Positions 29,548 through 49,979 of a stretch of DNA of 64,000 nucleotides are shown here, one piece after another; within the stretch, counting starts at the first letter, position 1; each line of letters opens with the position of its first letter. A program made the translations under genes and the position numbers. The notes below the pieces were generated by a model, which made no database searches, was not told the DNA's origin, and worked only from the letters and a program-made list of their open reading frames with translations. The DNA is from an uncultured delta proteobacterium (GTDB lineage Bacteria; Desulfobacterota; BSN033; UBA1163): NCBI GenBank assembly GCA_963708295.1, contig CAVPSJ010000014.1, positions 160,001 through 224,000 of the forward strand. The letters run 5' to 3'.

Positions 29548-30219
29548 CTATTCGAGCAGATAGGCGATGGCTCTTGCAGGCGCCCCGTCTCCCGCCTTCA
29601 TTCTTATCGGCAGGCAGATCAGGTAGATTCTTTTGTTCAGCAGGTGTTTGGCCTCGCTACTGATTTCTTCTATCAGTGGGATACCATTGCCCAGCAAAAG
29701 GTTATGTGCAGGGTTCGTTTTGTCTCCGTACTGATCGATGCTGAAGAAGTCGATGCCTACGGATTTGACTTTTTTCTGCACGAGCCATTCTGCTCCGCTC
29801 TTTTCCAGATACGTATACTTCGAGTTGATCCATGACTCCCCAAGATGGTTGGAACAGCCCGTGTAAAGAATGACGATGTCTTCAAGCCGGACCAAGTCCG
29901 AAAATTTCTTCAGATCATCCGCGCCAATACCGGAACCGATCTCTTTGAAGGAGAGGTCTAGAACGACGCCTTCACCCATGAACCGATTCAAGTCCAACTC
30001 TTCCAGAGGCTTACCCTCATTCGACAGATGACGGGGTGCATCCACGTGGGTTCCGTGGTGCGTGGCCATGGTGATCTTGTGAACATTGAATCCTCCCTGC
30101 TCGACGCTTGAGACCTGTTCGAGTTGCACTGGGAAACTTGCCGGATAGTAGGGCATCTTCTCCCAGACTGGATTAGAGAGGTCATAATACCTTCCTTTGA
30201 ATTTAGGAACCGGTTCCAT
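29548..30219 (-). CDS. Cyclase family metal hydrolase (kynurenine formamidase / isatin hydrolase family)
   Basis: HHGTHVDAPRH motif, VGID, GDGAPARA. Confidence 0.88.
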   Translation of the reverse strand: MEPVPKFKGRYYDLSNPVWEKMPYYPASFPVQLEQVSSVEQGGFNVHKITMATHHGTHVDAPRHLSNEGKPLEELDLNRFMGEGVVLDLSFKEIGSGIGADDLKKFSDLVRLEDIVILYTGCSNHLGESWINSKYTYLEKSGAEWLVQKKVKSVGIDFFSIDQYGDKTNPAHNLLLGNGIPLIEEISSEAKHLLNKRIYLICLPIRMKAGDGAPARAIAYLLE

Positions 30220-31011
30220 GCTTGAATCCTCCTCTGATTATAAGTTAACAGGCGGGACCCGTGTTTCTTCCAACCGAACGATAAAAGGGAAAGAAAAAAA
30301 TTCCCTTTGGGCGGATCAAATATACGAAAAAACGGAGCGGTCTGTCAAGCAAAAATCGAAAAATGACCGCGAGCCGAAGAGACATCGACTCGAATGTTGT
30401 TATTGAGATAAGAACTTGCTTTGGACGAAGTGAATATGCAAAAGCAAGTCCTCACAGTTTGAGTAAACAGGATTGGGTACGACCGAGTCCGGATTAATCG
30501 ACATAGTAAAAGAGTCCCCCCATATGCTGAGACTTGGGTGAATACACCTCAGAGGGCAGTGATGTCACAATTTCCAACTCTGGCTGCTCTATGGCTGAAC
30601 CCATTGATTGGATAGTAGATCTGATTTCCTCTTGTCAGCAATGAGTTCAGTTAGGAATTCGCTCATTCTCTCTTTCATTCGGAAACCAATAAGTCTTAGT
30701 GCCGATCGATAGGCTGACTTTGTAGATGTTGTGCCTCCCCCCCCTTTGATAGACTCCCTGCGATAATCGTCATTTTCAAATCTTGCCAAACAATATAACG
30801 CCTTAAGTAATCATTGACAATAAAGTTACCCATGCGAATAATGCGTCATGAAAAATAATGGATTGTATGGGATGCCTCTATCCATATAATTCATGTTGAC
30901 TTTCCCAAGCAGAATCATTAGGATTTAATTGAAACATGAAGTTTTAGTAGGCTAAATTCAATACCATATAAAAATAATGGTTGTGATCTCCAAGTAGAAA
31001 GAGGGTTTACT

Positions 31012-31833
31012 ATGAGAATGATCGATACCCATTTCCACATCGGCGTTATCCCCCACGAATGGCAGCATATCCTCGGGCTCTGTGAATTGGACACGGTGAT
31101 CGTTCCCTCGGATCAGATGATTCCCGACTATTCTACCCTAGACATGGTGAAGGATCATTACGACCGAATCCTCACGGAAAAAACTGAAAATGCCCATGAC
31201 TTTGGGATTTTCAATGTCTTTTTGGCCGTCACATATCCCATGTGGGGGCTCCCATTGTCCCTGCTGGATAAAGGGATTGAGCTCTTGGAACAGTATATCG
31301 GGAAACCTCGCGTCGTAGGGGTCGGCGAGGCAGGAATGGATACGGTTACCGTTGAGCATGAGGAAGTCGTGTTCAAGGCAATGGTCGCTTTTGCGAAGGA
31401 ACACAAGGTGCCTATTATCATCCACACCCCGCCCCCGCGCCATTCCCCCTATCTTGGCCGTGAGAAAACGGATTATGACAAACGGAAGGTGATGGAACGG
31501 ATTATCAAAATTCTTGTCAATTCCGGAATCGATCCTAAAAAGGTGATCCTCGACCATATGAACAAGGAAACCCTTGAGATGGCCTGGGGCTATGAGTCCT
31601 GGCTGGGCCTGAGTTGCTGTTTGGACAAACTGAGCGGCCCTGAGATCGTCTCCTTTTACAGGGAGTACGGGCCAGATCGCTTTATCGTCAATAGTGAATG
31701 GGGATTCTCTGGAGGGGGTAACCGATCTGTCCCCAAGGTAGTTGTCGATATGAAGGCCGCGAATGCGCCTCTTGAAGATATCCAGAAGATGGTTTTCAAA
31801 AATGCAAAAACTTTCTTCAACCTGACGATCTGA
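31012..31833 (+). CDS. TatD-related metal-dependent hydrolase
   Basis: IDTHFH, GVGEAG, IIHTP, ILDH, VNSE. Confidence 0.8.
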   Translation: MRMIDTHFHIGVIPHEWQHILGLCELDTVIVPSDQMIPDYSTLDMVKDHYDRILTEKTENAHDFGIFNVFLAVTYPMWGLPLSLLDKGIELLEQYIGKPRVVGVGEAGMDTVTVEHEEVVFKAMVAFAKEHKVPIIIHTPPPRHSPYLGREKTDYDKRKVMERIIKILVNSGIDPKKVILDHMNKETLEMAWGYESWLGLSCCLDKLSGPEIVSFYREYGPDRFIVNSEWGFSGGGNRSVPKVVVDMKAANAPLEDIQKMVFKNAKTFFNLTI

Positions 31834-32411
31834 TTTTTTTGCCAAATCGTCTATTCTCAAATTCTCACTCAAGAAGATTCCGAGACCTTAATCCCCTCAG
31901 TTGTGATCTATCCATTTGTGTTAACCTGACTGCTTTTTGTGTAATGCAGGAGAAAGAAATTTCTGCGAAATAAACCCAGATCAATGCTCTCCTTACTACA
32001 CTCACTTTCTCATGGTGATCATCAATGTATTACATCAATTGATTCCGGGGACTTGCGAAAGAAATAACCGAAGGGGACTCGGAAAAACTCCATTTTACGA
32101 ATGCTCAATAGCTGCTATCTATCCTTCGTTTTTAGACCCCGTAAAATGTTTCGATACGATTCTTCTATTGAATCTGGATCCGTGATACCAGTAATCGTCG
32201 ACGTCAAGAGTTGCCCAGAGGGAAGACTTCTGAAGCCCTTAGCCATCAAATTAGCCACCCCTTTCTCTTGAGGCGTCTAGAGGGTTCTTATTAATCTTTT
32301 GACCCCCATCCTGCTTAGAAAATCTTCCAGAACTTCTCCGACGCCTCTTCTCGCCTTGACACCCATTTTATATTTTGTTATCCGTTGTATGTGAGAAAGG
32401 TGAATGAGAGA

Positions 32412-34115
32412 ATGATGCGTGATCAAGCAGTTTCCGGCGACGCTTCTCCGAATACCGTTTTCAGCAATGCCACCCTTTTCAACGCTTTCACCAGAGAGTT
32501 TATCAAAGGCCAATCCCTCTGGGTCAAAGACGGCATCATTGCCTACGTGGGTCGTGCGGCCGAATTTCCCAAGAGTGAGAAGACCGTAACGATCGACGCA
32601 GATGGAATGGTCCTTCTTCCCGGATTGATTGATGGCCACACCCACACCTTGAGTCACCGGTACAGTGTCGAGGAATTCATCAAGCACGCGATTCCATCCG
32701 GTGTCACAACGGTGATTACAGAAACCATCGAACTTGCGACCATCGCGGGGAAAGATGGCATAGAATATTTTGCAAAAGGGTTGGAAGGACAACCGATCCG
32801 ATTGTATTACACGGTCGCGCCTCTCTGCGGTCTCACCCCAACAGAAGAAATCATTGCCCCGACCCTTGAAGAATTTGAGTCCATCCTGAAAGACCCCAAA
32901 TGTCTCGGCATCGGCGAGATCTATTGGGGGAACCTTTTCTTAGAGGGAAAACAGGGAGAGCGATTGAAGGAGCTTATTTCGACGGCTCTGGAGATGAAGA
33001 AAGTGGTGGAGGGCCATACCGCAGGTGCAAAAGGACAGAAACTTCAGACCTATGCCAGTTTTGGTATCTCCTCGTGCCATGAGCCCATTACGGAAAAGGA
33101 GGTATTGGAGAGACTTCGGTTGGGTTACTGGATCATGATTCGGGAAGGGGGGATCCGGAAGGAACTGGAGGGAGTCAAGGGAATTTTCAAGAAGAAGATT
33201 GACTTTAGAAGATTGGCCTTGGCAACGGATGGGGTCGATCCCGAGGGATTTTTCACCGAGGGCTATCTTGACGCCTCTCTGAGGAGTTTGCTGAAGTTGG
33301 GGGTTCCGCCGAAGCTGGCTTATCAGATGGTAACCATCAATGTCGCAGAGCATTTCCGCCTTGACCCTCTCCTCGGGTCTCTTTCACCCGGGAGAATGGC
33401 TGATCTTCTAATCATTCCCAGCCCGAATGAATTTTCGCCCCAGCTGGTGATGTGCGACGGCAAGATTATTTTCAAGGATGGCAAATCCCTGGCGGGGCCA
33501 CAAAAGGTCTTTTTTCCGGAAGCCATGTTTAACACGGTAAGAATCAAGGACTACTGTTTTCCTCCTGTCCCCAAAAAAGGGAAGGTCAGGACAATGGAAC
33601 TGGTGACGAGACTGGTTACCCAGGAAAGAATCATCGATCTTGAAGATCCTGAGGAATCGAAAGATGTGGTCATGATCTTCGTCATCAACAGGCTGGGAAC
33701 TGGAAAGGCCTTTATGGGTCTTCTCAAGGGATTCGGCCTTCAACGAGGAGCTTACGGGACGACGACAAGCTGGGATATGCCTGATATGATTGTCGTGGGA
33801 TGTGATACTCAATCGATGGAAACAGTGATCGGAAGACTCGAAGAAATTGGAGGGGGATGTGCTTATGCAATCGGGAAAGAGATCGTTGCAGAATTACCCG
33901 CTCCTCTCTGTGGCGTCATTTCTTTAAAACCGATGGAGACGGTTGGAAGCGAGGTTAAGAAACTGGAAGAATCTCTGAAGAAGAACGGAGTCAAATGGGA
34001 AAAACCTATCCTCACGGTTGACACTTTCGGAACCCCCGCTATTCCAAGCTTAAGAATTACCGATCATGGATACGTCAGGCTAAAAGACCGGGAAATTCTT
34101 TCTCTGGAGATATGA
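32412..34115 (+). CDS. Adenine deaminase-like amidohydrolase (divergent)
   Basis: PGLIDGHTH, EGH, SCHE, IREG, TDG, AEHFRL..GSLSPGRMAD; ETIE replaces DPHE. Confidence 0.8.
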   Translation: MMRDQAVSGDASPNTVFSNATLFNAFTREFIKGQSLWVKDGIIAYVGRAAEFPKSEKTVTIDADGMVLLPGLIDGHTHTLSHRYSVEEFIKHAIPSGVTTVITETIELATIAGKDGIEYFAKGLEGQPIRLYYTVAPLCGLTPTEEIIAPTLEEFESILKDPKCLGIGEIYWGNLFLEGKQGERLKELISTALEMKKVVEGHTAGAKGQKLQTYASFGISSCHEPITEKEVLERLRLGYWIMIREGGIRKELEGVKGIFKKKIDFRRLALATDGVDPEGFFTEGYLDASLRSLLKLGVPPKLAYQMVTINVAEHFRLDPLLGSLSPGRMADLLIIPSPNEFSPQLVMCDGKIIFKDGKSLAGPQKVFFPEAMFNTVRIKDYCFPPVPKKGKVRTMELVTRLVTQERIIDLEDPEESKDVVMIFVINRLGTGKAFMGLLKGFGLQRGAYGTTTSWDMPDMIVVGCDTQSMETVIGRLEEIGGGCAYAIGKEIVAELPAPLCGVISLKPMETVGSEVKKLEESLKKNGVKWEKPILTVDTFGTPAIPSLRITDHGYVRLKDREILSLEI

Positions 34116-34508
34116 TGTTTTATTTCATGATCCATTCCAATAGATAAAAAACCTTGACAACCCGATCAATTATTGTTATTTGGAAATTTAGGCGTTAAGA
34201 ACCGAAGAACCGGGCCCACAGGGTGGGGCTCTGAAACCCATTTTCTCTAACCCAAAACCCAGATCGAGAATTCAATAGATTGGACAAAGGCTTTTCTGCC
34301 ATTGGCAAACACGTCTTTTACCTCCCCCATTCCCGTCAACCGCAGGCCCTGGTCCCGACCGAGGGCGGGGCAGGCAAAGGACGGGCTTTCTAACGGGGTA
34401 AACGTTGAAGGCAAAAAGCAAAAAGATGAAAGGAGGTGATCGGGGGGACATGGAACAGAGTTTTTTTGTAGTTTCATTTAACTCTTTTTCCGATAGAAGG
34501 AGGAGATT

Positions 34509-35906
34509 ATGAAGGAGTACAAAGTTTTTCTTAGAGAGGATGAGATTCCGAAGCAATGGTACAATATCCAGGCAGACTTACCCAGCCCCCTGCAGCCGCC
34601 CCTCCACCCGGCAACAAAACAACCGATCGGTCCTCAAGACCTTGCCCCCGTTTTCCCCATGAATCTCATCGAGCAGGAGGTCAACACCAAGGATCGGTGG
34701 ATTGATATCCCCCAAGAGGTGATGGAAAAACTCCTCATCTGGAGGCCTACTCCTCTCCGTCGGGCTCATGGATTAGAAAAAGCCCTGGGAACACCCGCCA
34801 GGATTTATTACAAGGATGAAGGGGTGAGCCCTCCAGGAAGCCATAAGCCGAACACAGCCGTTGCACAGGCTTATTACAACAAGGTTTTTGGGATTAAACG
34901 GATTGCGACAGAAACCGGTGCAGGGCAATGGGGAAGCGCCCTTAGTTTTGCTTGCGGTCTCTTCGGCCTGGAGTGTAAGGTCTATATGGTCAGGATCAGT
35001 TATGACCAAAAACCTTATCGCCGCTTGATGATGAATACCTGGGGAGCCAACTGTGTTCCCAGTCCGAGCAAAGACACCAATGTGGGGAGAAAGATTCTGG
35101 AGGCGAACCCGGATTCTCCCGGAAGTCTCGGAATTGCCATCAGCGAGGCTGTTGAAGACGCGGTCACGTCAAAGGACACCCGATACTCCCTGGGAAGCGT
35201 TTTGAACCATGTCCTCATGCATCAAACCATCATCGGTCTTGAGGCGAAGAAGCAGTTGGAGAAATTTGGGGAGAAGAAAGTCGATATCGTCACCGGGTGT
35301 GCGGGCGGGGGAAGCAACTTTGGTGGCCTTGCCTTTCCTTTTGTCCTGGATAAGATCAATGGTGCCAAGATTACCATTATTCCCGCGGAACCCACTTCTT
35401 GCCCCACCATGACCCGGGCGCCGTTTGTCTATGACTTTGGGGATAACGTAGGAATGGCACCCATGGTTCCGATGCACAGTCTCGGACATTCCTTTATCCC
35501 GGCACCCATCCATGCGGGAGGACTTCGCTATCATGGGATGGCTCCCCTCGTCAGCCAATTGATCGTTGACGAACTCTTGGAGCCTCGGGCTTATAATCAA
35601 CTCGAGTGCTATGCCAATGCGGTCCTCTGGGCGAGGACCGAAGGGTTCATCCCCGCACCTGAGACCAGTCATGGTATCTCTGTCGTAGTTGAAGAAGCGA
35701 AGAAGGCGAAGCAAGAGGGAAAGGAAAAAGTCATCCTTCTCAACTGGAGCGGCCATGGCATCATGGACCTCGGTGGTTATGAATCTTATTTCAGCGGAAG
35801 GCTCGTTGACTACCCGCTACCACAGGAAGAGATGATGAAATCCCTGAAGGATATTGAAGGATGGCCGAAACCCAAGATTATGAAAATGGGTAAAGTCGTT
35901 GGATAA
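34509..35906 (+). CDS. trpB2: TrpB2 (stand-alone tryptophan synthase beta-like, PLP)
   Basis: [47 protein letters not shown]; no adjacent trpA. Confidence 0.93.
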
Positions 35907-35918
35907 GTGAGTGATGGG

Positions 35919-35955
35919 ATCCTACGGGCCTTTCGGGGCCCGTAGGATTTTTTAT
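35919..35955 (+). terminator. Rho-independent terminator
   Basis: ATCCTACGGGCC-TTTCGG-GGCCCGTAGGAT followed by a T run. Confidence 0.8.
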
Positions 35956-36065
35956 TAAATTCGCATCTGAAAACCCCTCCCTGTGCCTGCCTGCCGGTAG
36001 ACAGGGACGGGGGTTCTCTACTGAACGAGCTTGTACCCAATTCCTTAAAGCCTGCCGGAACACCG

Positions 36066-36335
36066 ATGATTGAAGAACATGATGCCCTGATCATCCGTTG
36101 CCCTCAGCTGGGTGGCGAGATTCCCTTCCGATATTGTCGAACCGTTAATGAACACCTGCCATGCCGGAGAATAATGGTCTGCTGGGAGTTTCGAATGGAG
36201 ATATCAAAATTCATAGGGGAACATTATTCCGTTGATCAAGTCCAATGCGCCTTGACACCTCCGACCAAGACAAGGCTTGATACCATTCTCGAACTCATCG
36301 AAAAGGCCAAGAAGATCAAAGAAGAAGGAGAGTGA
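36066..36335 (+). CDS. Small Cys-rich hypothetical protein
   Basis: CPQLGG..FRYC..PC..CW pattern; tightly coupled to the next gene. Confidence 0.65.
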   Translation: MIEEHDALIIRCPQLGGEIPFRYCRTVNEHLPCRRIMVCWEFRMEISKFIGEHYSVDQVQCALTPPTKTRLDTILELIEKAKKIKEEGE

Positions 36336-36339
36336 CAGG

Positions 36340-37434
36340 ATGCTGATCTCTGATCGATTAAGAAATATTAAGCCCTCGGGGGTGAGGCGAATCTTTGATT
36401 TGGCACGCCGGATGAAAGATCCGATCAATCTGAGCATCGGCGAACCCGATTTTGATATCCCGGAACCTCTTAAAGAGGAAGGCATTAAATGGATCAAAAA
36501 GGGGTTCAACAAATATACTCCCACCCAGGGCATCCCTGAATTGAGGGAAAAAATCGCCTCCCATTTAAAGAAGAAGGGGATCCATTTCGAGGAGGTCATG
36601 GTGACAGCGGGCGTGACCGGCGGTCTTCTCCTGGCCAGCCTTGCCCTGATCAACCCGGGGGATGAAGTCATCATCCCCGATCCGTTTTTTGTGATGTATG
36701 AGTATCAGGTTCTTCTTATGGGAGGGGTCCCTGTCTTCGTCGATACCTATCCTGATTTCCGACTGAAGGAGGAAGAATTCATCAAGAAATTATCGAAGAA
36801 GACGAAGTTCATTATCATCAACAGCCCGAATAACCCCACGGGGGCGATCTTTCCAAAGGAAGATCTGATGGGGGTGGTCCGGACCGCCCGGGAAAGAAAT
36901 CTTTTAATTCTCTCCGATGACATCTACGATAACTTTGTTTTCGACGCCCCTTCGTGCCCCTGTATCGGACAATTCTATGAGAACACGTTAACGTTGGGCG
37001 GATTCTCAAAGGGTTGGGGGATGACCGGTTGGAGACTGGGTTATGCGGCCGGCCCTAAGGAGATCCTCCAGCAGATGATCACCCTTCAGCAATATACATT
37101 CTCCAGTGTCAACTCCTTTGCTCAGAAAGCAGCGATCAAGGCCCTGGACTTCAATGTGGAGGATTACATTAAAGGCTATAAAAAGAAAAGAGATTTGATC
37201 TACCATGGGCTCAAAGAAAAGTTTAATGTCGAAAAGCCACAAGGCGCTTTTTATATCTTTCCGGAGGTCCCGGGAGGAAACGGAGAGGCCTTTGTAGAAA
37301 AAGCCATCGAACAGAATCTCTTTATTGTGCCGGGTAGCGTTTTTTCCAAGAGAAATACCCACGTCAGGATCTCATTTGCAGCATCGGATGAAACCCTTCA
37401 AAAAGGCATTGAGACCCTTAATCGAATCAGCTAA
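36340..37434 (+). CDS. Class I/II PLP aminotransferase (aspartate/aromatic type)
   Basis: IGEPDF, NSPNNPTG, SDDIY, GFSKGWGMTGWRLG. Confidence 0.92.
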   Translation: MLISDRLRNIKPSGVRRIFDLARRMKDPINLSIGEPDFDIPEPLKEEGIKWIKKGFNKYTPTQGIPELREKIASHLKKKGIHFEEVMVTAGVTGGLLLASLALINPGDEVIIPDPFFVMYEYQVLLMGGVPVFVDTYPDFRLKEEEFIKKLSKKTKFIIINSPNNPTGAIFPKEDLMGVVRTARERNLLILSDDIYDNFVFDAPSCPCIGQFYENTLTLGGFSKGWGMTGWRLGYAAGPKEILQQMITLQQYTFSSVNSFAQKAAIKALDFNVEDYIKGYKKKRDLIYHGLKEKFNVEKPQGAFYIFPEVPGGNGEAFVEKAIEQNLFIVPGSVFSKRNTHVRISFAASDETLQKGIETLNRIS

Positions 37435-37460
37435 AATTAAGGCAATAGATAAAATTCAGG

Positions 37461-37690
37461 TTTACCGCGGAGGCGCAGAGAACGCAAAGCATGTTTTGAT
37501 GAACCAATCCCGCGAGATGCGGTATTGGTTCATCAACGCTTCCCCTTCGGGACCAGGCCTCATCTATGTTTCAAGGCTATAGCGCTGCAAGAATGTAGTT
37601 TGACTTAGGAGCAGACTTTTTATTTGGCGGCTCCTCACCGTCAAATAGAAAAATCACTCCTCCGCGTTCTCGGCGGCTCTGCGGTGAGAT
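37461..37690. repeat. REP-like element, same family as 724-886
   Basis: TACCGCGGAGGCGCAGAG...CTCTGCGGTG; internal TTTATTTGGCGG..CCGTCAAATA hairpin. Confidence 0.7.
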
Positions 37691-37717
37691 TTCTGAGAAA
37701 GCGGAATAGAGGGATAG

Positions 37718-38257
37718 ATGCCAATCGATTTGCAGGCAGTGTGCGAAATCATTGAAAGGCACGGCTATCAAAAGGCTTCCCTGATCGGAATCCTCCAGGA
37801 TATTCAGGGGGAAATGAGCTACCTTCCTCGAAAGGCATTGGTTCAGGTAGGGAAAAGCCTCGATATTCCCCTGACTCACATTTACGAAGTTGCGACTTTC
37901 TATAAGGCCTTCAGTCTCGAGCCCAGGGGAAAACATACCATCCAGGTATGCCTGGGAACAGCCTGCCACGTCCGAGGAGGGTCCAGAGTTCTCGACTATC
38001 TTGAGAATCGACTGAAGGTAAAACCGGGAGGAACCACAAAAGACCTATCCTTTACCTTGGAAAGTGTCAACTGTCTGGGGGCCTGCGCGTTGGGACCCAT
38101 GATGGTGATTGATAAGAAATATTACGGAAAAATCAACACGAATAAGATTGAATCCATTCTGGAAAAATATCAGTCTCGAAATGAATCACCGCATCCAAAG
38201 TATCTCCGATCTTCGGAAGCTCCGCCAGTCCTTGAAAAAGTTAAGAGACAGGAATAG
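37718..38257 (+). CDS. NuoE/HydC-like [2Fe-2S] subunit
   Basis: [20 protein letters not shown]. Confidence 0.9.
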
Positions 38258-40036
38258 GCCGTCCGTCACAATCTGCGCAGGAACGGGCTGTCAGGCAACG
38301 GGTGCTTTAGAAGTGGTGGAGAAATTCAAACAAGAAATCTTAAGCCGGCATCTGGAGGAGAAAATTGATGTTCGCGCCAGCGGATGCCACGGTTTTTGCG
38401 AGCGAGGGCCCCTGGTGGTCATCCGGCCTGAGAAGATCTGCTACATGAATGTAGAGGCGACGGACGCGTCTCAGATTCTTGCGGACACGGTTCTCGATGG
38501 GAAAGTGATCGACCGCCTTCTCTACCAGGACCCCTTGACGAAGGAAAAGATCATTCACGAAGAGGAAATCCCATTTTACAAATTTCAGCAGAGGGTCGTT
38601 TTCGGGAGCAACGGAGAGATCGATCCAACTCGGATCGATGACTATATTGCGTTGGGCGGTTACCAGGGGTTGGAAAAGGTCTTATCCGAAAAAACCCCGG
38701 AAGAGGTTATTGAAACCATCAAACAATCCGGTCTGAGAGGCCGGGGGGGTGGAGGTTTTCCAACCGGCGCAAAATGGGAGTCTTGTCGAAAAGCACGGGG
38801 GAAGGAAAAGTTTGTCATCTGTAACGCCGATGAAGGAGACCCCGGCGCTTATATGGATCGGTCCCTGCTGGAGGGGAACCCGCACCGTGTGATTGAAGGA
38901 ATGCTCATCGGAGCTTATGCCATTGGTTCCGGGGAAGGGTACGTTTATGTGCGCAATGAGTATCCCCTCGCTGTTGCAAATCTCAGCCGCGCTATCGACC
39001 AGGCGAAGGATTACGGTCTGCTCGGAAAGAATATTCTGGGGTCGGGATTTACATTCGTCCTCAAGATCAGCCGCGGGGGAGGGGCCTTCGTGTGCGGCGA
39101 GTCAACCGCCCTCATGGCTTCTCTGGAGGGAAAAGTCGGAGAGCCTCGGGCCAAATATATTCACACCGTCGAGCACGGCCTCTGGGATCAACCCAGCAAC
39201 CTGAATAATGTTGAGACATGGGCCAATGTCCCCATCATCATCAACCGGGGTGTTGATTGGTATACCTCCATCGGGACAGAAGGGTCAAAGGGAACGAAGA
39301 TTTTCTCGCTGGTCGGAAAGATTAACAATACCGGTCTTGTCGAGGTCCCGATGGGAATCACGTTGCGCCAGATCGTTTACGATATCGGCGGTGGCATTCC
39401 GGGAAGCAAGCGCTTCAAGGCCATCCAGACAGGGGGGCCCTCCGGCGGCTGTATTCCGGAGACGCTTCTTGACCTTCCCATCGATTTCGATCGACTTCAG
39501 GATGCCGGATCCATGATGGGTTCGGGCGGCATGATCGTCATGGATGAAGACAATTGTATGGTGGACATGGCTCGATATTTTGTTGGGTTTCTTCAGGAGG
39601 AATCGTGCGGCAAATGTGTTCCCTGCCGGGAGGGACTTCAACAGATGGGCGAGATCCTTAACCGGATCTGCGAAGGGAACGGGGGGAGGGAGACATTCAA
39701 CTTCTGCAAAACCTCTCTCAGGTGATGGTTGACACATCGCTTTGCGGCCTCGGACTAACAGCACCCAACCCTGTCTTGTCAACCGTCCGATATTTCAGAG
39801 AGGAATACGAAGCCCATATTAGAGATAGAAAGTGCCCGGCCAAATACTGTAAAGGGCTTATCTCTCTTTCCATCGACCCTGAAAAGTGCACCGGCTGCGG
39901 AGCTTGTTTGAAGGTTTGTCCTGTGGATGCGATTGCCGGTGAGAAAAAGAAACCTCATCAGCTCGATGGAGATAAATGCGTAAAGTGCCGGGCCTGCTAC
40001 GAGGCCTGTATGTTTGATGCAGTACTAATTCAATAA
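38181..40036 (+). CDS. NuoF/HydB-like FMN/NADH subunit with N-terminal [2Fe-2S] and C-terminal 2x[4Fe-4S]; frameshift near 39690
   Basis: [58 protein letters not shown]. Confidence 0.9.
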
Positions 40037-40148
40037 CGATAGAGGTTGGAGGAGCATCCCGCTTCGCGGGATTTGAGGATAGAGGTTAATAATGTTTTGC
40101 CTCAAGCCTCAAGCGAAGCGCTCCTCGAACATCATTTGTGGTTCCGTT

Positions 40149-41465
40149 ATGATCACTTTAACCATTAACGGCAAAAAAGTAAGAGCCAAAAAAGATACGA
40201 CCCTTTTGGAAATCTGCCGGAAGATGTCCATCTCGATTCCGACGCTCTGTTATCATCCGGATCTCGGACCTCATGGTTCCTGCCGGTTTTGCACCGTGGA
40301 AGTATTCGAAAATGGAAAGGCCCGAATGGTGACCTCCTGCAATTATCCAGCTCGGGAGGGGATCAAAGTGGAAACTCATTCTGACAAGGTCATTCAGGCA
40401 CGACGAGTTCTGGTCGAGCTTCTCCTGGCACGATGTCCTCAGGTTCCCTTCGTTCAGAATTTCGCCCGGAAACTGGGTGTTGAAAAAACTCCCTTCAAGA
40501 CTGAAAATCCGGAAAACGATTGCATCCTTTGCGGTCTTTGTGTTCGCACCTGCCATGAAATCGTGGGGGCCAATGCCATCGGGTTTTCCAACAGAGGAAC
40601 TCAGAAAAAGATTGGGACACCTTTTGAGATCGATTCCGAACAGTGTCTGGCCTGCGGGGCCTGTGAATATATCTGCCCCACCGGAGCCGTTAAAATGGAG
40701 ATGAACCGGATCAGGAAAATCAAGCGATCCGACACCGGGACGCTGCGGTATTGCCGGTATATGCGCCTCGGATTACTCGATTTTATGGTCTGTTCGAACG
40801 GCTTCGAATGCTGGCGTTGCGAGGTGGACCAGGGGATGGAAGACCGGTTTGGAACCCACCCCGCCTTTGCCGTAAAACCAGCGAAAGACAAGCACCCTTT
40901 GCAGGTGAATGGATTTACCTTCTACCCCGAACTTTTTTACAGCGAAGAACATCTCTGGGCCAGACCCATGGACCGGAATATCAAGGTAGGACTCAACGAC
41001 CTAGTTTGCACCTTTGCCATGGAAGCAGATTCCATCCGCCTTCCTCCAGCGGGCACCGTTCTGAAGAAGAGACAGGTCCTTGCGGAAATTACGGCAACGG
41101 GGAAAAAGGCAAGAGTCCGTTCTCCTTTTACGGGAACGATTTCTGTCATCAACCACGACGTGGAAGAATCTCCGAACCTGGCCTGGAGGGATCCCTATGG
41201 CCGGGGATGGCTGCTCATCTTGCATCCTGATCCTCCGGATCAGATTTTGCAGCTTTATTCGGGTGAACCCGCAAAGACCTGGTTTACAAAACAGGCCACG
41301 AATTTGGCCACGCTTTTTATAAAATGGGCTCCCAAGCCCTCTAAAAAAGAGTCCCAGGATGGGCAGTTGATTCGAAAGATCGTCCGTGATCGCTGGGATC
41401 AGCTGACCGAGATCCTGCTGCATTCCAACGTGAAAAAAAGAGATGCTGAAAGAAGTTCAGGTTGA
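40149..41465 (+). CDS. NuoG/HydA N-terminal FeS module fused to a Cys4 motif and a GcvH-like domain
   Basis: IPTLC..GSCRFC..SC, CILCGLCVRTC, CLACGACEYICP; HLWAR..KVGL..SPFTG..DPYGRGWL. Confidence 0.8.
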   Translation: MITLTINGKKVRAKKDTTLLEICRKMSISIPTLCYHPDLGPHGSCRFCTVEVFENGKARMVTSCNYPAREGIKVETHSDKVIQARRVLVELLLARCPQVPFVQNFARKLGVEKTPFKTENPENDCILCGLCVRTCHEIVGANAIGFSNRGTQKKIGTPFEIDSEQCLACGACEYICPTGAVKMEMNRIRKIKRSDTGTLRYCRYMRLGLLDFMVCSNGFECWRCEVDQGMEDRFGTHPAFAVKPAKDKHPLQVNGFTFYPELFYSEEHLWARPMDRNIKVGLNDLVCTFAMEADSIRLPPAGTVLKKRQVLAEITATGKKARVRSPFTGTISVINHDVEESPNLAWRDPYGRGWLLILHPDPPDQILQLYSGEPAKTWFTKQATNLATLFIKWAPKPSKKESQDGQLIRKIVRDRWDQLTEILLHSNVKKRDAERSSG

Positions 41466-41565
41466 CAAGTAGGGCGAGAAGTATCATTCATACCTTGGTT
41501 GTCATCCCGAACTCGTTTCGGGATCTGGATTTGCAGTGTGAGGGACCCTTAAGAAGGGATTAGTC

Positions 41566-44500
41566 ATGTCAGATAAAGAACAAAGAGTAGTTCTTGGAAA
41601 CGAAGCGATTGCCAGAGGCGTGGTGGAGAGCGGGTGTCAATTTTTTGCGGCCTATCCCGGCACTCCCAGCTCGGAGATCCTCCCCGCGATTGTTCGTTTC
41701 AAAAAGGAAAACAATCTGGAGATCTATGTTGAATGGTCTACGAATGAGAAAGTCGCTTTTGAGAATGCGTTGGTGGCCTCTTATACAGGGAAACGAGCTG
41801 CCGTGGCCATGAAGCAGGTGGGGTTGAATGTCGCGACGGATCCCCTGATGAGCTCCGCCTATATCGGAACGATCGGAGGGTTTGTCATCATCAGTTGTGA
41901 CGATCCTGGGCCCTATTCTTCCCAGACCGAACAGGACACCCGGTTTATGGCCATGTTTGCGAAGGTCCCGGTTTTTGATCCTGCCAGTCCGAAAGAGGCC
42001 CAAGAGATGTTACCCATTGCCTTTGAGCTTTCCGAAAAATATCAGATTCCCGTTATCCTCCGTCCCGTCATGAGGGTCTCCCATGCCCAGCAAACCATCA
42101 CGTTCAACCCTATTCACAGAGTTGAAAGGAAAGCCGATTTTCAGCGCAATCCCCAGCGATGGAGCGCCACACCCAGATTTCGGTTTTTGCTCCATAAGCA
42201 GCTCAACGTGAAGCTTCAAAAAATTGCCGAAGAGTTCAGTTCCATGACCTCTCTCAATTTCGTCGAGCATGATCGGGAAAGAGCTTCTCTCGGAATCATC
42301 GCCGGAGGGATCGGTTATGCGATTGCCCGGGATATCGTCAATGAAATGGGCCTCCGGGAAGCGATTCCGATTCTCAAGATCGGGACTCCTTTCCCCTTTC
42401 CGAAAGAGATCGTAGAGGCCTTTATTAAGAAATGTGATCATGTGCTGATTCTCGAAGAAACGGAGCCGGTGATCGAGCTTCAAATACGTGACAAGTCGAA
42501 AGTCACCGGGAGATTGGACGGAAGGATTCCCAACGAAGGAGAAATGCTTCCCGAAGTCATTACCCAGGTGATCTCGGACCTATGTAAAAAGTTCTCCATT
42601 CCCGTAGGGGAGGTTCCTTCTTCAGGACCTCTTGAGAAGCTGGTGGCCGGGCTGGGCTTGCCCATTCGTCGACCGACGCTTTGTTCGGGATGTCCCCATC
42701 GGGCTTCTTTCTTTGCCATCAAGAAAGCTTTCCCGAATGGGATTTTCCCGAGTGACATCGGGTGTTACACCCTGGGGATGAATATGGAGTCTGTCGATAC
42801 CTGCCACGACATGGGAGCAGCCATCACCTTCGCCAGCGGTCTCTACCAGACTTTTCATCAGGATGGCAAAGAGATTCCCATCATCTCCACGATCGGAGAT
42901 TCAACGTTCTATCATTCCGGAGCTCCAGGACTCCTGAATTCCGTCTATAATGGCTCCCGTTTCATTCTTGTGATCCTCGACAACTCCATTACAGCCATGA
43001 CGGGTATGCAGCCGACCCCGGAATCCGGAACCACGGCGGATGGCCATCCGGGCAAAACCCTTTCTCTCGAAGAACTGGTGAAAGGATGTGGCGTCAAATA
43101 CATTCGCGTCGTCAATCCTTACGACATCAAGGGCATGATTCTCGAGGCGAGAAAGGCCTACGAGTATACCAAACAGCACGAGGGGGGGATGGCCGTACTG
43201 ATTTCCCGTTATCCCTGCATCACCTATCAAAAAGAGATCCTCAAGGTTAAGCCTAACAAGGTTGATATCCGCCATATGCCTCCTCCGGAGAAAGATCTTT
43301 CCCAGGTGAAAAGCGGGGCCATGCCGCAATCGCTTTTGCCTGTGTATCAAGACAGAATCGCACCCTGCACCGGGGCCTGTCCAATCCAGGTCGATGCCAG
43401 GGGCTATATCGATCTCATATCAAAAGGAAAGTTTGATGAAGCGCTCGCTCTTGTTCGTCAGCAGAACCCATTCCCTGCCATCACGGGCAGACTCTGCGCC
43501 CGGCCGTGCGAGAAGATCTGCCGAAGGGGGGATGTGGATCAACCGATTGCAATCGACCTTTTGAAACGGTTCGTTGCAGAACGGGAAAACGCCCCTGTCA
43601 TTTAATATCACGCCAGGCCCTGAAAAGGCAGCAAAGGTGGCCATTGTGGGATCTGGCCCCACAGGGCTGATGGCTGCTTATGATTTGCGACGCCATGGCT
43701 ATCCGGTGACCGTCTTTGAGGCCCTTCCTCTACCCGGCGGGACCATGGCCGTGGGGACAGGGCGATTTCGACTGCCGGAGGAGGTACTCAATCGAGAGAT
43801 CGATATCGTCAAGAAACTTGGAGCGAATTTCAAATTCAATACGCGGATTGGTGGCGAGACCTCTCTCAACAGCCTCAGGGCTCAAGGGTTCAAGGCCATC
43901 CTTCTGGCCACAGGAGCTCACAAAGCCAAAAAGTTGAATCTTCCAGGACACGAGGCCAAAGGTGTCGTGGATACCCTGACGTTTCTTAAGAAAGTTACCC
44001 TGAAACAAAAACTTCCTGCTTTTTCGAGGGTGGTGGTGCTGGGTGGAAGTGACCGGGCCCTGGATGCAGCACGGACAGCGCTGAGACTTGGAGCGAAATC
44101 GGTGACGGTTCTATTCAGCCGTTCGCAAAGGGAAATGCCTGCCGAGGCTTCGGAAATCGCTGAGGCAGAGAGAGAGGGAGTGTCCTTTCAGTTTTTCTCG
44201 GTTCCGTCAAAGATTACAGCTTCCCAGGGTAAAGCGATCGGGATCTCCTTCAGAAAAGCCATTCTCAGCGCTCCCACAAGCCTCGGGAGAACAAGGGTGC
44301 AATCTTTACAAGGCCATGAGAAAAAATTGAAGGTTGATCTGGTCATTACCTCACCCACCCTATGTTCCGGATCTTTCTTACTTTGGAGAAGTCGTTCCGC
44401 AAACTGCCTGGAATACAATCCAGGTCGACCCGCTGACATTAGCTACGTCTGTGAAGGGAGTCTTTGCTGGAGGGGATGCAGTCACAGGCCCCAAGAATTT

Positions 44501-45092
44501 TATTGAAGGTCTGGCAGCAGGAAGAAAGGCGGCCCTCTCTATCCATCGTTATTTAAAAGGGGAAGCCCTGGGGAAAAACCGCGAGGTGGAAGGAGCTTCC
44601 ACAGAACTGGTCTCGGTCAATATCGACAGAGTGGAAACCCAGCCAAGAGTGGAGGAATCTGTTCTTCCCGTTGAATCCCGCAAGAAGAATTTTAAGGAGG
44701 TTCATCTTCTACCTTCCGAAGAGGCGTTGATCGCAGAGGCGAAGAGATGCCTCCACTGCGGGGCTTGCACTCAATGCGACACGTGTTCGATCCAGTGCCC
44801 GGAGGGAGCGATTTCCAAGACGGAAGGCGGCTATGTCATCGATTATAGCAAGTGCACAGGCTGCCGGGTTTGTGTCCAGGAGTGCCCGACCTCAGCGATC
44901 GAGATGCCGGCCGTGGGCGCCTGTATTGCCTGCGGGTTCTGTCTCAAGCGGTTCGAATGTCCCTCGTTGCTCAAGGGAGAGGACGGCCGCGTGGAAATCG
45001 ATCGATTAACCTGCGTGGACTGCGGCCTGTGCGCAGAGGTGTGCTGTCAGGAAGGAATCTATCAGGTCAGCTGGATGATGATACAAATGTGA
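41566..45092 (+). CDS. iorA: Indolepyruvate:ferredoxin oxidoreductase alpha with inserted GltD/NfnB-like flavin module; frameshifts near 43590 and 44360
   Basis: LGNEAIARG, YPGTPSSE, MKQVGLNVA, CSGCPH, SDIGCY, IGDSTFYHSG; APC..CP..NPFP..C; GSGPTG; FAGGD; C-terminal CIACGFC..FECP. Confidence 0.82.
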
Positions 45093-45127
45093 AGCTTCAC
45101 TGGCCATAGGCCAGTGCTTAGAAGTCC

Positions 45128-45316
45128 TAAACTCGAAATCGTAAACTCTGATAAAACTCAAATGATCCAAACTGCAAAGTCTCGAACTGAAAAATTACCT
45201 TTTGAGTTTCATATATTTTCGATTTGTTTAGGGTTTAGAGTTTGGTGTTTGAGAGTTTAAATAATTCGGATTGGTCCGAGGCGGACGCTGCGTCCCGATA
45301 TTCGGATTTCGGATTT
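45128..45316. repeat. Degenerate heptamer (AAATCCG/AAATTCG) palindromic repeat tract
   Basis: Same family at 49912-49975, 50320-50405, 50900-51060, 61845-61870, 63910-63935; ~45 bp shared in reverse with 50903-50945. Confidence 0.65.
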
Positions 45317-45333
45317 GGCCAAAGGGCAGTACG

Positions 45334-45900
45334 ATGAATATCCAGATGATCATCTCCGGTGTGGGCGGGCAGGGCGTTCTCCTGGTGACACGGATCTTTT
45401 CAGCCTTTTCCCTTCAAGAAGGGTACCCCCTCATTGGTTCGGAAGACCACGGGATGAGCCAGCGGGGAGGATCGGTGATGACCCATTTGAAAATTGGAAA
45501 TTTCGATAGCCCCCTTGTGAAGAAGGGGAGCGCTGACATTCTCTTATCCCTCGAAAAAAATGAAGCCTACAAGACCCTTCACTATCTCCGAGACGGCGGT
45601 CTCTGTTTTATCAATGCCTCAGATCCGAACGATATGAACCGGGAGATCATGGGGTACCTGAAAGAAAGAGGGATGGAAGCTTATGTGGTTGGAGCGGACC
45701 AGCTTGCGAGGGGTATGGGATCGCCTCAATCGGCCAATATCGCTCTCATCGGGTTTGCCGCATCCCATCCCAGGTTTCCCTTTCCCCATGACAAACTCAG
45801 AGACGCCATCGACCGGGTGACCCCCCAGAGGTTTCGGGAAGCGAGTCTCAAAGTATTTGAGAAAGGGCTCGCTGAAGGCCGAAAATCTGTAAAACCGTAA
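45334..45900 (+). CDS. iorB: Indolepyruvate oxidoreductase beta subunit
   Basis: GVGGQG, HGMSQRGGSV. Confidence 0.9.
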   Translation: MNIQMIISGVGGQGVLLVTRIFSAFSLQEGYPLIGSEDHGMSQRGGSVMTHLKIGNFDSPLVKKGSADILLSLEKNEAYKTLHYLRDGGLCFINASDPNDMNREIMGYLKERGMEAYVVGADQLARGMGSPQSANIALIGFAASHPRFPFPHDKLRDAIDRVTPQRFREASLKVFEKGLAEGRKSVKP

Positions 45901-46140
45901 TTCTTATTTTCAGCCGTCTCTTTTGCAGGCCTGAATTACCTCCCCATCTTCGAATGAGCATTCTATCCTTTGCCTTAGGTCTGTGCGCGCAGGAGAATAC
46001 TCTCTCAATTTTAACCTCAAAATTGGGATTTCCAGCCTGAAACCAGCCTTCATCTTTCAGAGATGATCAAACCGATGAAGCGGTTATTTTGGTCCGACGC
46101 GAGTCCCCGGCTCAAGAACCTGTTCGGAGACGCTTTTTTT

Positions 46141-46437
46141 AGGGCTGATCAAAAATGGACCTGCCTCCGCCGAAACGGCTCCGCGCAGGCAGGCAGACAA
46201 AATTCTTTGAGGGAACGGTCTAGACCCGCTCCCTACCGCTCGACGCTCCAACAAAGCTGCCCCGTGCTTGATACGGGAAGGACGAGGGGTGCCGTTGCGA
46301 CGAATAAGGAGCAACTCTTGGCACGCCCGTGAGACGGTGAACGGGCCGGAAGCCGTTGCGACGAATAAGGAGCGACTCATCGCTACGTCCCCGAAGGGGA
46401 CCGGATAACGTCGTAGATGGGCGTTTTCCAGCAGCCT
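46141..46437. mobile_element. MITE-like element copy 2 (reverse orientation, expanded)
   Basis: AGATGGGCGTTTTCCAGCAGCCT end; internal TTGCGACGAATAAGGAGC duplicated. Confidence 0.65.
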
Positions 46438-46457
46438 TGTCAAAATGCCGAAGTCAA

Positions 46458-47288
46458 TTATGATTTCTTCTTCTTGCTGGCCTTAGCTTTTGAAGGAGAC
46501 TGAGCCATTTCCTTAAAAGTATTCTCCCATTTATCGATCATGGTTTTCAGCTCGTCCAATTTAGCTTTCGCTTCAACGGGCGCGGAGACAAGCATCTTTT
46601 TTGACTTCTCCAAACCCTGGTTAATCGCTTTGGCATCGGTCGTCCAGGCCTGTTTCTTGTCTTTGAGTTTCTTCTCCATTTTTTTGGCCGTGGCCCGCAA
46701 TTTTTTCCAATCTGCCTCAACGGTTTTCAGGGCCGCCTTCGCGTGATTGACAACGGCCTTTTTCCCGGCTTCCACGCCTTCTGCGGCCTTTTCAAAAGCA
46801 GCTTTTGCCCCGATATAACTTTCCTTCGCCCCTCTGTACTTCTCCTCCTTCATCTGGGATTCTGCTCCATCCCATGCCTTCCTGGCGGCTTCGAGATCGG
46901 CAGAGGCGTACTTATCCGCTCCGGCCGACATCGCGGCATCCATCGCTTTCTTGGCAGCCTCTTTTTCCGCATTCGCCTGGTCGGCAGCCGCTTTCTTCCC
47001 GGCTTCAACGGATGCAGCCGCTTTTTCGAAAGCAGCCTTCGCTCCGATATAACTCTCTTTCGCTTCCTTGTACTTTTCCTCTTTCATCTGGGATTCTGCG
47101 GTATCCCATAGCTTATTGGCAGCGTCCAGATCGGCAGAGGCGTATTGATCTGCGCCGGCTGAAAAGGCGGCATTCATCGCTTTCTTGGCAGCTTCTTTCT
47201 CTGCTTCGGGCGGTTTTGAACAACCCACCAATATCATTCCCAGTACAAGAACCACCCATACGAATACGGATAACTTGGTCATTCTCAT
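46458..47288 (-). CDS. Lipoprotein with two ~78-aa Ala/Lys-rich helical repeats (DUF4398-like)
   Basis: Lipobox ILVGC; tandem AEKEAAKKAM...EAGKKA repeats. Confidence 0.8.
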   Translation of the reverse strand: MRMTKLSVFVWVVLVLGMILVGCSKPPEAEKEAAKKAMNAAFSAGADQYASADLDAANKLWDTAESQMKEEKYKEAKESYIGAKAAFEKAAASVEAGKKAAADQANAEKEAAKKAMDAAMSAGADKYASADLEAARKAWDGAESQMKEEKYRGAKESYIGAKAAFEKAAEGVEAGKKAVVNHAKAALKTVEADWKKLRATAKKMEKKLKDKKQAWTTDAKAINQGLEKSKKMLVSAPVEAKAKLDELKTMIDKWENTFKEMAQSPSKAKASKKKKS

Positions 47289-47598
47289 AAACCCATTCCC
47301 TCCTCCGATGATATTTGGTAAAACGTGAAAACTATAAATCAAGTTCTCCTATATCGCAATAGCTGAGCCCGGGAGCAGAACATGGCTTCGTCATAAGGGC
47401 GAATCTCTCCGTAAATGAAATGACGCCAGCCTCAGAAGATAAAATTTTATTGGCGGTCAGGGCACATCAAGGTCAATTTTGGATAGGCGTGTCACAAACC
47501 CGTCACACGTGAAAAGACCCGTCGGCGTTGAATATGATTATTGGTGTTAAGATTCACGTTCTGACCCTAAAATGATATGACCCGAATACTGGTAACTC

Positions 47599-49893: not shown

Positions 49894-49979
49894 TATGGCC
49901 TCCATGCTTCTAAATCCGAAATTCGAATATCGAATCCAGGAAACAAATCCTAAATTCAAATGATCAAATTTCCAAAACT

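Follow-up and report, generated by a model that had tools for sequence, protein, structure and literature searches.

A putative Type 2 BfuABC module whose BfuA subunit carries a four-cysteine motif and a GcvH-like domain without the lipoyl lysine

A window of 64,000 nucleotides from an uncultured delta proteobacterium (GenBank assembly GCA_963708295.1, contig CAVPSJ010000014.1, positions 160,001 to 224,000) was analysed with respect to three consecutive genes at 37718-41465. By their domain content, these genes encode BfuC, BfuB and BfuA of a Type 2 BfuABC (HydABC) module, for which electron bifurcation is predicted. The BfuA-type subunit continues beyond its iron-sulfur (Fe-S) domain into a four-cysteine (Cys4) motif, a domain with the fold of the glycine cleavage H-protein (GcvH) and a helical tail, and the position of the lipoyl lysine of H-proteins is occupied by glycine. 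The fused architecture was present in all the listed homologues, and in five close relatives the gene was followed by genes of an indolepyruvate:ferredoxin oxidoreductase (IOR) type. The tail may act as an adaptor for an electron-input partner.

Results

The Type 2 BfuABC module

The open reading frame (ORF) of the third subunit opens at 40092 and ends at 41465 (457 residues). The likely start is M20 (nucleotide 40149), since the orthologue of L001, one of the relatives described below, aligns from that position. Fer2_4 (residues 20-97), a Fer4 dicluster (141-202) and GCV_H (282-396) were detected in the protein by Pfam, and no hydrogenase or molybdopterin domain was found at E <= 0.01. An earlier reading of this stretch made from the sequence alone, hereafter the original prediction, had described a HydABC/Bam-like core whose third subunit bears one [2Fe-2S] and two [4Fe-4S] clusters and no catalytic domain. 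The Pfam results agree with that description, and such a core with a non-catalytic third subunit fits Type 2 BfuABC. The predicted NuoE-like gene was also recovered at 37718-38257 (Table 1). In the case of the long NuoF, the predicted extra Fe-S domains were detected by Pfam, but the gene is split by a frameshift which the original prediction had missed. The N-terminal piece of this BfuB comprises a thioredoxin-like [2Fe-2S] domain, Complex1_51K (the FMN/NADH site), SLBB and the first half of NADH_4Fe-4S.

The best match of the N-terminal ~180 residues of the third subunit among solved structures was WorA (9mqx_A; E 1.5e-39, ~40% identity, residues 2-182 to 5-184). The two proteins aligned without large gaps and share the cysteine pattern, while an additional Cys-rich stretch of T. 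kivui HydA1 faces a gap in the window protein. Clusters A1, A2 and A4, without A3, were assigned on the basis of these two alignments. According to PMC9304861, a Type 2 BfuA holds A1, A2 and A4, lacks A3 and A5, and takes its third substrate via extra subunits. All the domain features of BfuA, BfuB and BfuC that define this class were found by Pfam and alignments, BfuB being split in the window, and the IOR genes which follow the third subunit fit the use of extra subunits; the Cys4 motif described below may be an A5-like site. The whole protein was folded from a 47-row alignment with a mean predicted local distance difference test score (pLDDT) of 76. In the Foldseek search with this model, WorA, HydA and NuoG-type chains came first for the N-terminus and H-proteins for the C-terminus.

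The Cys4 motif

The motif C221-x12-C234-x5-C240-x2-C243 was located at nucleotides 40752-40820, which corresponds to the cysteine motif placed at ~40750-40830 by the original prediction. It begins 19 residues past the end of the BfuA N-terminal domain. In the alignment of 121 sequences, otherwise 62-90% identical, residues 216-263 were the best-conserved stretch of the protein: each of the four cysteines was present in 121/121 and H256 in 119/121 sequences. The Cys4 stretch had a pLDDT of 83-87 in the C-terminal model.

Pfam searches with four Cys4 stretches at E <= 10 returned only noise, and no Pfam model corresponded to the motif. A DGC family was detected neither in the whole protein at E <= 0.01 nor in the Cys4 stretch at E <= 10 (Pfam). 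The comparison of residues 197-293 with all solved chains at E <= 10 resulted in chance matches only (yeast adhesins, E 0.18 and worse). An arrangement of four invariant cysteines like this one is more typical for metal binding; we infer a metal at the motif, zinc and a Fe-S cluster being about equally likely.

The H-protein domain and the lipoyl site

The C-terminal 253 residues were modelled from an 87-row alignment with a pLDDT of 89.1, the barrel reaching 95-98. In the VIA-align comparison, the pea H-protein 1dxm_A was matched over 131/131 of its residues with Z 16.5 and a root-mean-square deviation of 2.1. The values for the human H-protein 8ugo_E and GcvH-L 5a35_A were Z 14.7 and 11.7, respectively, and the next structural matches were biotinyl/lipoyl-type barrels with Z ~5 and below. 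The Foldseek template modelling scores to H-proteins, normalised by target, were 0.83-0.85. The VIA alignment to 1dxm_A extends only as far as model residue 204, within the helical part of the model (helices 187-252). The GcvH fold of the original prediction was recovered, whereas its span, given as ~40910-41230, lies slightly further downstream by Pfam, at 40935-41279.

The H-x-W and G-W barrel motifs are kept. Gly337 (nucleotides 41100-41102), within 'iTATGKKa' of the window protein, aligns with the lipoyl lysine of solved H-proteins ('vESTKs' / 'vESVKt'; phmmer) and stands also opposite the lysine of two H-protein paralogues of the same genome ('ESGK'). The substitution of the lipoyl lysine by glycine, noticed by eye in the original prediction, was upheld by both comparisons. 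The composition of the lipoyl column was G100/E11/R5 among the 121 close family members and G31/D11/A8/S6/E6/K4 among the 87 rows of the wider family.

The scores with all the NCBIfam models of GcvH type were under the cut-offs: 44.3 bits against 115.85 for TIGR00527 (gcvH), 52.9 against 117 for PRK01202, 35.6 against 150 for NF045810 (GcvH_rel_desulf) and 28.4 against 144.05 for TIGR03077 (not_gcvH). With respect to H-protein membership, the fold is present and the lysine of E-S-x-K is absent. Judged from these alignments, the domain is GcvH-like and has no acceptor lysine, although the organism has lipoylation enzymes: a LplA/B-type lipoyl ligase is encoded in the window at 13014-13655 (LplA-B_cat, E 1.2e-49), and two BPL_LplA_LipB matches were obtained in the genome. 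The ligase gene closes a segment (8220-13655) with a full lipoate-dependent 2-oxoacid dehydrogenase (E1 alpha, E1 beta, E2 with a lipoyl domain, E3). The genome that carries this set resembles those of Thermodesulfobacteriota and is apparently that of an anaerobe. Besides at least two canonical H-protein genes ('ESGK' in L082 and L083), it contains a third strong GCV_H match, L081.

The domain shares the H-protein fold with GcvH and with LbpA of the sHdr system. It differs from both by its fusion to Fe-S domains, by the preceding Cys4 motif, by the helical tail and by the glycine in place of the lipoyl lysine. Unlike with GcvH, the scanned neighbours of the window gene were Bfu and IOR genes, not gcvT/gcvP. 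Non-lipoylated barrels of NuoF-like and respiratory redox complexes are known from the N-terminal barrel-sandwich hybrids of RnfC and NqrA, and weak structural matches were obtained with 8ahx_C (Z 3.7), 4u9o_A (Z 3.9) and 8a1u_A (Z 3.6). However, these are minimal hybrid barrels and distant fold kin, whereas the window protein has a full H-protein fold, carried by BfuA and not by a flavoprotein.

Conservation of the fusion and of its gene neighbourhood

A word-seeded HMMER search for homologues resulted in 2004 proteins at E <= 0.001, and the architecture was read for the best 120. Among these listed matches (62-90% identity, mostly 422-478 residues), GCV_H together with Fer4-type domains was present in 120/120 and Fer2_4 in 118/120, the other two being shorter at the N-terminus. 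The original prediction had named a read-through artefact, with homologues always split, as a case in which it would fail; the homologues were not split. Their source names were 'bidirectional [NiFe] hydrogenase diaphorase subunit', 'glycine cleavage system H lipoate-binding protein/ferredoxin' and '2Fe-2S iron-sulfur cluster-binding protein', and the listed homologues with an organism given belonged to Thermodesulfobacteriota. Six-frame matches to the fusion in other genomes were single open frames of 433-438 residues, and public contigs span the fusion junction without indels.

The gene neighbourhood was compared in five close relatives, namely the loci L001 (72% identity) and L002 (61%) from metagenome-assembled genomes, and L125-L127 from the window's own family. 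A pattern search with the family alignment favoured the N-terminal ferredoxin, and of the 80 loci it retained only 3 were relatives over the full length. In 5/5 relatives the genes follow in the order TrpB-like enzyme, aminotransferase, BfuC, BfuB, BfuA-GcvH, a fusion of IorA, GltD and ferredoxin parts, and IorB. All these genes are intact, with lengths of 152-173 (BfuC), 618-623 (BfuB), 424-441 (BfuA-GcvH) and 1169-1172 residues (IorA fusion). The IorA fusion of the relatives consists of IorA, a GltD/NfnB-like module with Fer4_20 and Pyr_redox_2, and a Fer4 dicluster. More than 100 clusters of this fusion family were found among the listed matches (52-89% identity, ~1168 residues). After its own IorA family, the nearest listed relatives of the GltD part were ~1480-residue proteins named 'HdrA-like polyferredoxin'.

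The original prediction had proposed coupling of the module to IOR or to the molybdenum (Mo) enzymes of the window. The IOR link is supported by the gene order kept in 5/5 close relatives, whereas the link to the Mo enzymes, which lie outside the conserved Bfu-IOR block, is not supported. No Mo enzyme was found in L001 and L002 by a Pfam scan of a part of the flanking ORFs, the hidden Markov model (HMM) set used for the neighbours having contained no Mo model; in L125-L127 the screen covered two flanking ORFs of L125. The Mo enzymes of the window are of the three-subunit xanthine-dehydrogenase type (15530-19454 and 47599-52047). A tungsten/molybdenum aldehyde:ferredoxin oxidoreductase (AFOR_N/AFOR_C) is encoded at 6047-7921, also outside the block.

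A more distant BfuA-Cys4-GcvH fusion (39% identity) was found in L003, where it occurs with a 2xCys4-GcvH gene, BfuC and BfuB behind a sigma-54 motif. GltD-like, HdrA-like and CCG genes are located near this fusion; the 19,272 bases examined at this locus revealed no IOR.

The wider Cys4-GcvH family

The C-terminal 248 residues were compared with 1.84 billion cluster representatives (full HMMER), resulting in 2691 proteins at E <= 0.001, of which 374 also passed E <= 1e-10. The pattern C-x(8-16)-C-x(4-7)-C-x2-C was present in 86 of the best 150, once in 53, twice in 31 and three or more times in 2 proteins. Its typical consensus was C-[RIV]-[WYH]-M-x-A-G-[VL]-x-x-[YF]-[KR]-[LI]-C-x-[NR]-x-[YF]-[DEQ]-C-x-x-C. 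The architectures comprised the BfuA fusion (~430 residues), a Fer4 dicluster with Cys4 and GcvH, Cys4 and GcvH alone (250-280 residues), and two Cys4 motifs with GcvH (~300 residues). In the metagenomic protein P0224 (505 residues), Cys4 and GcvH form the only N-terminal domain of a HisKA + HATPase_c kinase. Another metagenomic protein, P0137 (1391 residues), has no Cys4 and combines three GCV_H domains with a GlcD-like FAD oxidase, a Fer4 dicluster and two CCG domains. In the ESM Atlas, searched with the homologue P0175, the family appeared as 'hypothetical protein' clusters of up to 1046 members, mostly from Thermodesulfobacteriota. Atlas clusters which join GCV_H to Response_reg were treated as an unconfirmed lead only.

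The module profile was matched at E <= 1e-15 in 248 of 301 genomes (300 of the phylum and the window's own), a count that includes ordinary H-proteins. Several copies, often in tandem, were present in many of these genomes. Tandem arrays of 3-4 GcvH-like genes (~200-260 residues) with the helical tail and without Cys4 were observed in L116 (G009:C10), L128 (G197:C6) and L129 (G013:C71), and in L116, L117, L119, L120 and L147 at least one Cys-less copy directly adjoins a Cys4-bearing copy.

For the 20 stand-alone copies with the highest scores, taken from different genomes (L130-L149), the neighbourhoods were studied over ~5-19 kb with HMMs built from the proteins of this study. A histidine kinase and a sigma-54-type response regulator were found beside the module gene in 18 of the 20 loci. 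A GltD-like gene was present in 10/20, mostly as a ~1500-codon frame matching the ~1480-residue 'HdrA-like polyferredoxin', and this flavoprotein is the most frequent feature common to the window operon and the stand-alone loci. BfuC and BfuB were also present in four of the 20 loci, all of one family and not independent, and a CCG protein in two. CCG-domain proteins were located near the module in 6/37 loci (L003, L117, L120, L122, L133, L137). In L122 (G140:C11), two adjacent 2xCys4-GcvH genes lie between a gene for a 1398-residue GltD-HdrA-like protein and a CCG gene; its further neighbours, a NUBPL/ParA-type ATPase, a pterin-binding protein and CdhD, make up a Wood-Ljungdahl neighbourhood.

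The sigma-54 consensus for the -24/-12 region is TGGYAY-N5-TTGC. It was matched on the coding strand directly before the module gene or its tandem array in 17/28 loci (among L130-L149, L117-L124 and L003). Only 3 other matches were obtained in the 439,693 bases scanned, and shuffles of the window gave 0.29 matches per 64 kb. No match was found in the 64-kb window itself.

Proposed function of the tail

The closest solved counterpart of the window subunit is WorA of Acetomicrobium mobile WorABCSL. As described in PMC12318220, the usual C-terminal domain is replaced in WorA by a zinc finger formed of the four cysteines which otherwise bind A5, and the protein ends in a helix adaptor. WorS is recruited by this adaptor, which results in a distance of 10.7 Angstrom between clusters S4 and A4. 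The same source describes the decay of BfuA C-termini elsewhere, with a remnant A5 cluster in NiFe- and Nfn-Bfu. The window subunit resembles WorA (9mqx_A) in the set of A1, A2 and A4 without A3, in the lack of a catalytic domain and in the four cysteines directly after the N-terminal domain; in WorA these are followed by the adaptor recruiting the electron-input subunit (PMC12318220). In contrast, WorA has 247 residues with a short zinc finger and one helix, whereas the window tail of ~240 residues contains an H-protein barrel. The partner of WorA is a tungsten oxidoreductase; that of the window subunit would be, by gene order, the IOR-GltD fusion. NfnABC and StnABC likewise combine a BfuBC core with a GltD/NfnB-like NAD(P)H-FAD module, and the BfuA part of the window protein matches NfnA (9n5u_A) and 8oh5_C. 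The difference is that the GltD-like module of the window is fused to IorA and not to BfuA.

By analogy with WorA, the Cys4 motif and the GcvH-like tail could form a metal-stabilised adaptor which docks an electron-input partner onto BfuA, and we consider the chances of this function to be about even. The four cysteines would hold a metal, which could be zinc, by the example of WorA, or an additional Fe-S cluster. The barrel and the helical tail would recruit the partner, for which the GltD-like/ferredoxin part of the IorA fusion is the most likely candidate. Once docked, the partner would be close enough to cluster A4 for electron transfer, and the BfuBC core would thereby exchange electrons with 2-oxoacid oxidation and with NAD(P)H, the direction of the flow being our own deduction. 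Co-folding of the L001 tail (186-441) with the GltD/ferredoxin part (590-1169) of the L001 IorA fusion, run without controls, resulted in values of 0.16 and 0.01 against a mark of 0.32, which speaks neither for nor against binding.

Several points weigh against the docking function. The metal at the Cys4 motif is putative, as is any contact of the tail with a partner. The Cys4 stretch had no similarity to the C-terminus of WorA or to any solved chain (phmmer, E <= 10). The module occurs also without Bfu or IOR genes nearby, fused to histidine-kinase domains in P0224. Finally, BfuB and the IorA fusion are frameshifted in the assembly, and the function in this particular genome depends on these breaks being sequence errors.

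The kinase-fused copies are compatible with both docking and sensing. The module could be a sensor or regulatory domain which responds to the redox state or to a ligand in its cleft and gates the electron flow, an explanation we regard as unlikely. It is favoured by the kinase P0224, whose only N-terminal domain is the module, by the kinase and regulator genes found beside 18/20 of the top stand-alone copies and, as a lead only, by the Atlas clusters with Response_reg and GCV_H. However, the sigma-54 motif before the module gene or array in 17/28 loci points to a regulated target rather than to a sensor. In the DNA examined, no kinase or regulator was located near the window operon or in the five syntenic relatives, and the window had no match to the sigma-54 motif.

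It is quite unlikely that the tail is a structural leftover, a zinc-stabilised domain which steadies BfuA and has no partner-specific role. C-terminal remnants of BfuA do exist in other Bfu enzymes (PMC12318220), but the near invariance of residues 216-263 across 121 sequences argues against a leftover, as does the persistence of the module as a separate gene family, which has promoters of its own and is frequently duplicated.

The Cys4 motif with a lysine-less H-protein might also represent a new class of redox carriers, in which a Cys-bound cluster or a dithiol on a mobile barrel replaces the lipoamide arm; we hold this to be rather improbable. Such a module would shuttle electrons between GltD/HdrA-type flavoproteins and BfuBC cores. 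It would explain why stand-alone copies, bearing one, two, three or more Cys4 motifs, head sigma-54 operons beside such flavoproteins across Thermodesulfobacteriota.

A thiol carrier in the narrower sense, comparable with LbpA or with DsrC/DsrK, appears improbable as well. In this case the cysteines, including C-x2-C, would form a redox dithiol/disulfide in place of lipoamide, and the barrel would be serviced by Hdr-like CCG proteins. The retained H-protein fold with the lost lipoyl lysine and the CCG proteins in 6/37 loci are consistent with it. However, the four invariant cysteines are in general more characteristic of metal binding. WorA, the closest solved BfuA, uses its four cysteines for zinc (PMC12318220). 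No CCG protein was found at 30001-50000 of the window or in the DNA of the five relatives, searched with a small CCG model and, for the window ORFs, with Pfam; the same CCG model revealed no CCG/Hdr-like gene in these regions, and the domain, having no lipoyl lysine, does not correspond to LbpA.

The lipoylation of the adjacent Lys338 (nucleotides 41103-41105), which would make the domain a normal lipoyl carrier, is very improbable. This column is K111/R7/N2 among the 121 close homologues, and genes for a lipoate-dependent 2-oxoacid dehydrogenase and for an enzyme of the lipoyl ligase type are present in the window. Lipoylation, however, is reported to need a lysine exactly at the hairpin tip, and Lys338 is off that position. 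The residue is Arg or Asn in 9/121 close homologues, and the column reads G29, R23 and K14 among the 87 rows of the wider family. Lys338 lipoylation was rejected due to this variability and to scores far under the gcvH equivalog cut-off. A read-through or assembly artefact has a negligible probability: several frameshifts do occur in the same operon of this assembly, but it is refuted by the fused architecture of 120/120 listed homologues from many sources, by the single open frames in other genomes and by the public contigs which cross the junction without indels.

Relation to described systems

Bfu/HydABC-type modules are a major means by which anaerobes make or use low-potential electrons, and the structural basis for plugging the invariant BfuBC core into catalytic partners is only now emerging. 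The present locus is a conserved configuration in which an IOR-type oxidoreductase with an NfnB-like fusion would be joined to BfuABC via a BfuA tail not seen in solved structures. The tail provides a starting point for understanding the function of a very large, uncharacterised family of H-protein-like proteins without the lysine, a family linked to HdrA/GltD flavoproteins and to sigma-54 regulation. Should the module turn out to be a carrier of electrons or of thiol groups, the task that lipoamide performs elsewhere would be solved here in a new way.

The enzyme class is already known, and a 2-oxoacid oxidoreductase encoded with BfuABC (Por-Bfu) was predicted and left uncharacterised in PMC9304861. 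The terms 'indolepyruvate', 'IOR', 'glycine cleavage' and 'GcvH' are absent from the main text of that paper. No paper on a BfuA-GcvH fusion or on Cys4-GcvH proteins was found in the open literature, subscription journals and bioRxiv supplements not being covered. The literature on 'GcvH-like' proteins concerned GcvH-L, LbpA or lipoate metabolism, as judged from listings and abstracts. No description of the IOR-GltD fusion partner, of the Cys4 and lysine-less tail of BfuA or of the family of this tail appears to exist in Pfam, among the NCBIfam models at cut-off or in the searchable papers.

Other genes of the locus and frame breaks

The features of the locus are presented in Table 1. The TrpB-like orthologue occupies the same position in L001 and L002 (Pfam PALP) and in L125-L127 (463-residue ORFs). 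In the five relatives, the TrpB-like enzyme and the aminotransferase (in the window 34509-37434) always precede the Bfu and IOR genes (the latter at 41566-45900). The L001 orthologue of the IorA fusion scored 640.3 bits against the TIGR03336 cut-off of 650.9, and the window IorB 144.6 bits against 227 for NF004916. IorAB were assigned to the IOR type by best match, and their substrate class is putative. From the TrpB-aminotransferase-IOR set, a pathway connecting indole/serine, tryptophan, indolepyruvate and indoleacetyl-CoA may be proposed, which could run either way.

Table 1. Coordinates of the conserved block and of the parts of its BfuB and BfuA genes in the window.
Feature	Position	Strand	Evidence
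TrpB-like pyridoxal phosphate (PLP) enzyme, first gene of the conserved block	34509..35906	+	NCBIfam PRK12391, 708 bits vs cut-off 366
Class I/II aminotransferase	36277..37434	+	Pfam Aminotran_1_2, E 1.5e-67; upstream of BfuC in relatives too
BfuC / NuoE-like [2Fe-2S] subunit	37718..38257	+	2Fe-2S_thioredx, E 1.2e-51, full profile
BfuB / NuoF-HydB-like, N-terminal part, 501 residues	38181..39725	+	Pfam; tblastn with L001 BfuB
G6 run, BfuB frame break	39681..39686	+	One extra G restores the frame (sequence inspection)
BfuB, C-terminal part: end of NADH_4Fe-4S and 2x[4Fe-4S]	39686..40036	+	Pfam Fer4/Fer4_7
BfuA-type subunit with Cys4 and GcvH-like module	40149..41465	+	Pfam; L001 orthologue; homologues
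BfuA N-terminal domain: [2Fe-2S] A1 and two [4Fe-4S] (A2, A4), A3 motif absent	40149..40697	+	Alignment to 9mqx_A
Near-invariant stretch, residues 216-263, with Cys4 motif and H256	40737..40880	+	Conservation in 121 sequences
H-protein (GcvH) fold domain without lipoyl lysine	40935..41279	+	Pfam GCV_H, E 3.8e-17; structure match
Helical tail conserved with the module (W397, W412, W435)	41280..41426	+	Model helices 187-252; conservation
Fusion of IorA, GltD/NfnB-like NAD(P)H-FAD module and 2x[4Fe-4S], three frames	41566..45092	+	L001 orthologue, Pfam, NCBIfam
IorB (POR gamma-type), start uncertain	45271..45900	+	Pfam POR, E 5.8e-30

BfuB is divided between two ORFs by a frameshift in the G6 run. 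Residues 1-501 of the intact 618-residue L001 BfuB were aligned by tblastn to 38181-39683 (frame 3) and residues 503-618 to 39686-40033 (frame 2), and the NADH_4Fe-4S profile was divided between the ORFs into positions 1-45 and 55-85 (Pfam). One G added to the run gives the usual ...SLCGLG continuation, and the relatives have a single intact BfuB gene of 618-623 residues with the same domains. The IorA fusion is distributed over three frames: residues 1-678, 676-932 and 931-1169 of the 1169-residue L001 orthologue were found in frames 1, 2 and 3, respectively. Public contigs closely matching the window had one base fewer at 43597 (X1, X3) and at 44354 (X3) or 44358 (X1), which correspond to both frame breaks of the IorA fusion, and 12 contigs across all 4 public runs had one base fewer at 45293, at the start of IorB.

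The frame breaks are most likely indel errors of the assembly and not signs of pseudogenes, since public contigs lack one base at three of them. This makes an error likely for these three sites; the G6 site of BfuB is not bridged by the listed contigs, and the function in this genome is therefore conditional. Residues 1-152 of L001 BfuC align to 37718-38173, and the last ~22 residues of the window BfuC are unmatched in relatives. One contig of run X2 had 2 bases fewer at 38174, and the extra C-terminal residues may result from another indel. The extension at 38174-38257 overlaps the start of BfuB by 77 bases.

Similar breaks were observed elsewhere in the window: hydantoinase B, divided between two ORFs, and biotin carboxylase are split, and hydantoinase A is shortened (904-2392, 57569-59302, 60834-62230). 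The window also encodes a tripartite ATP-independent periplasmic (TRAP) transporter at 52111-55323 and a PaaK-like ligase at 56053-57345, both outside the Bfu-IOR block.

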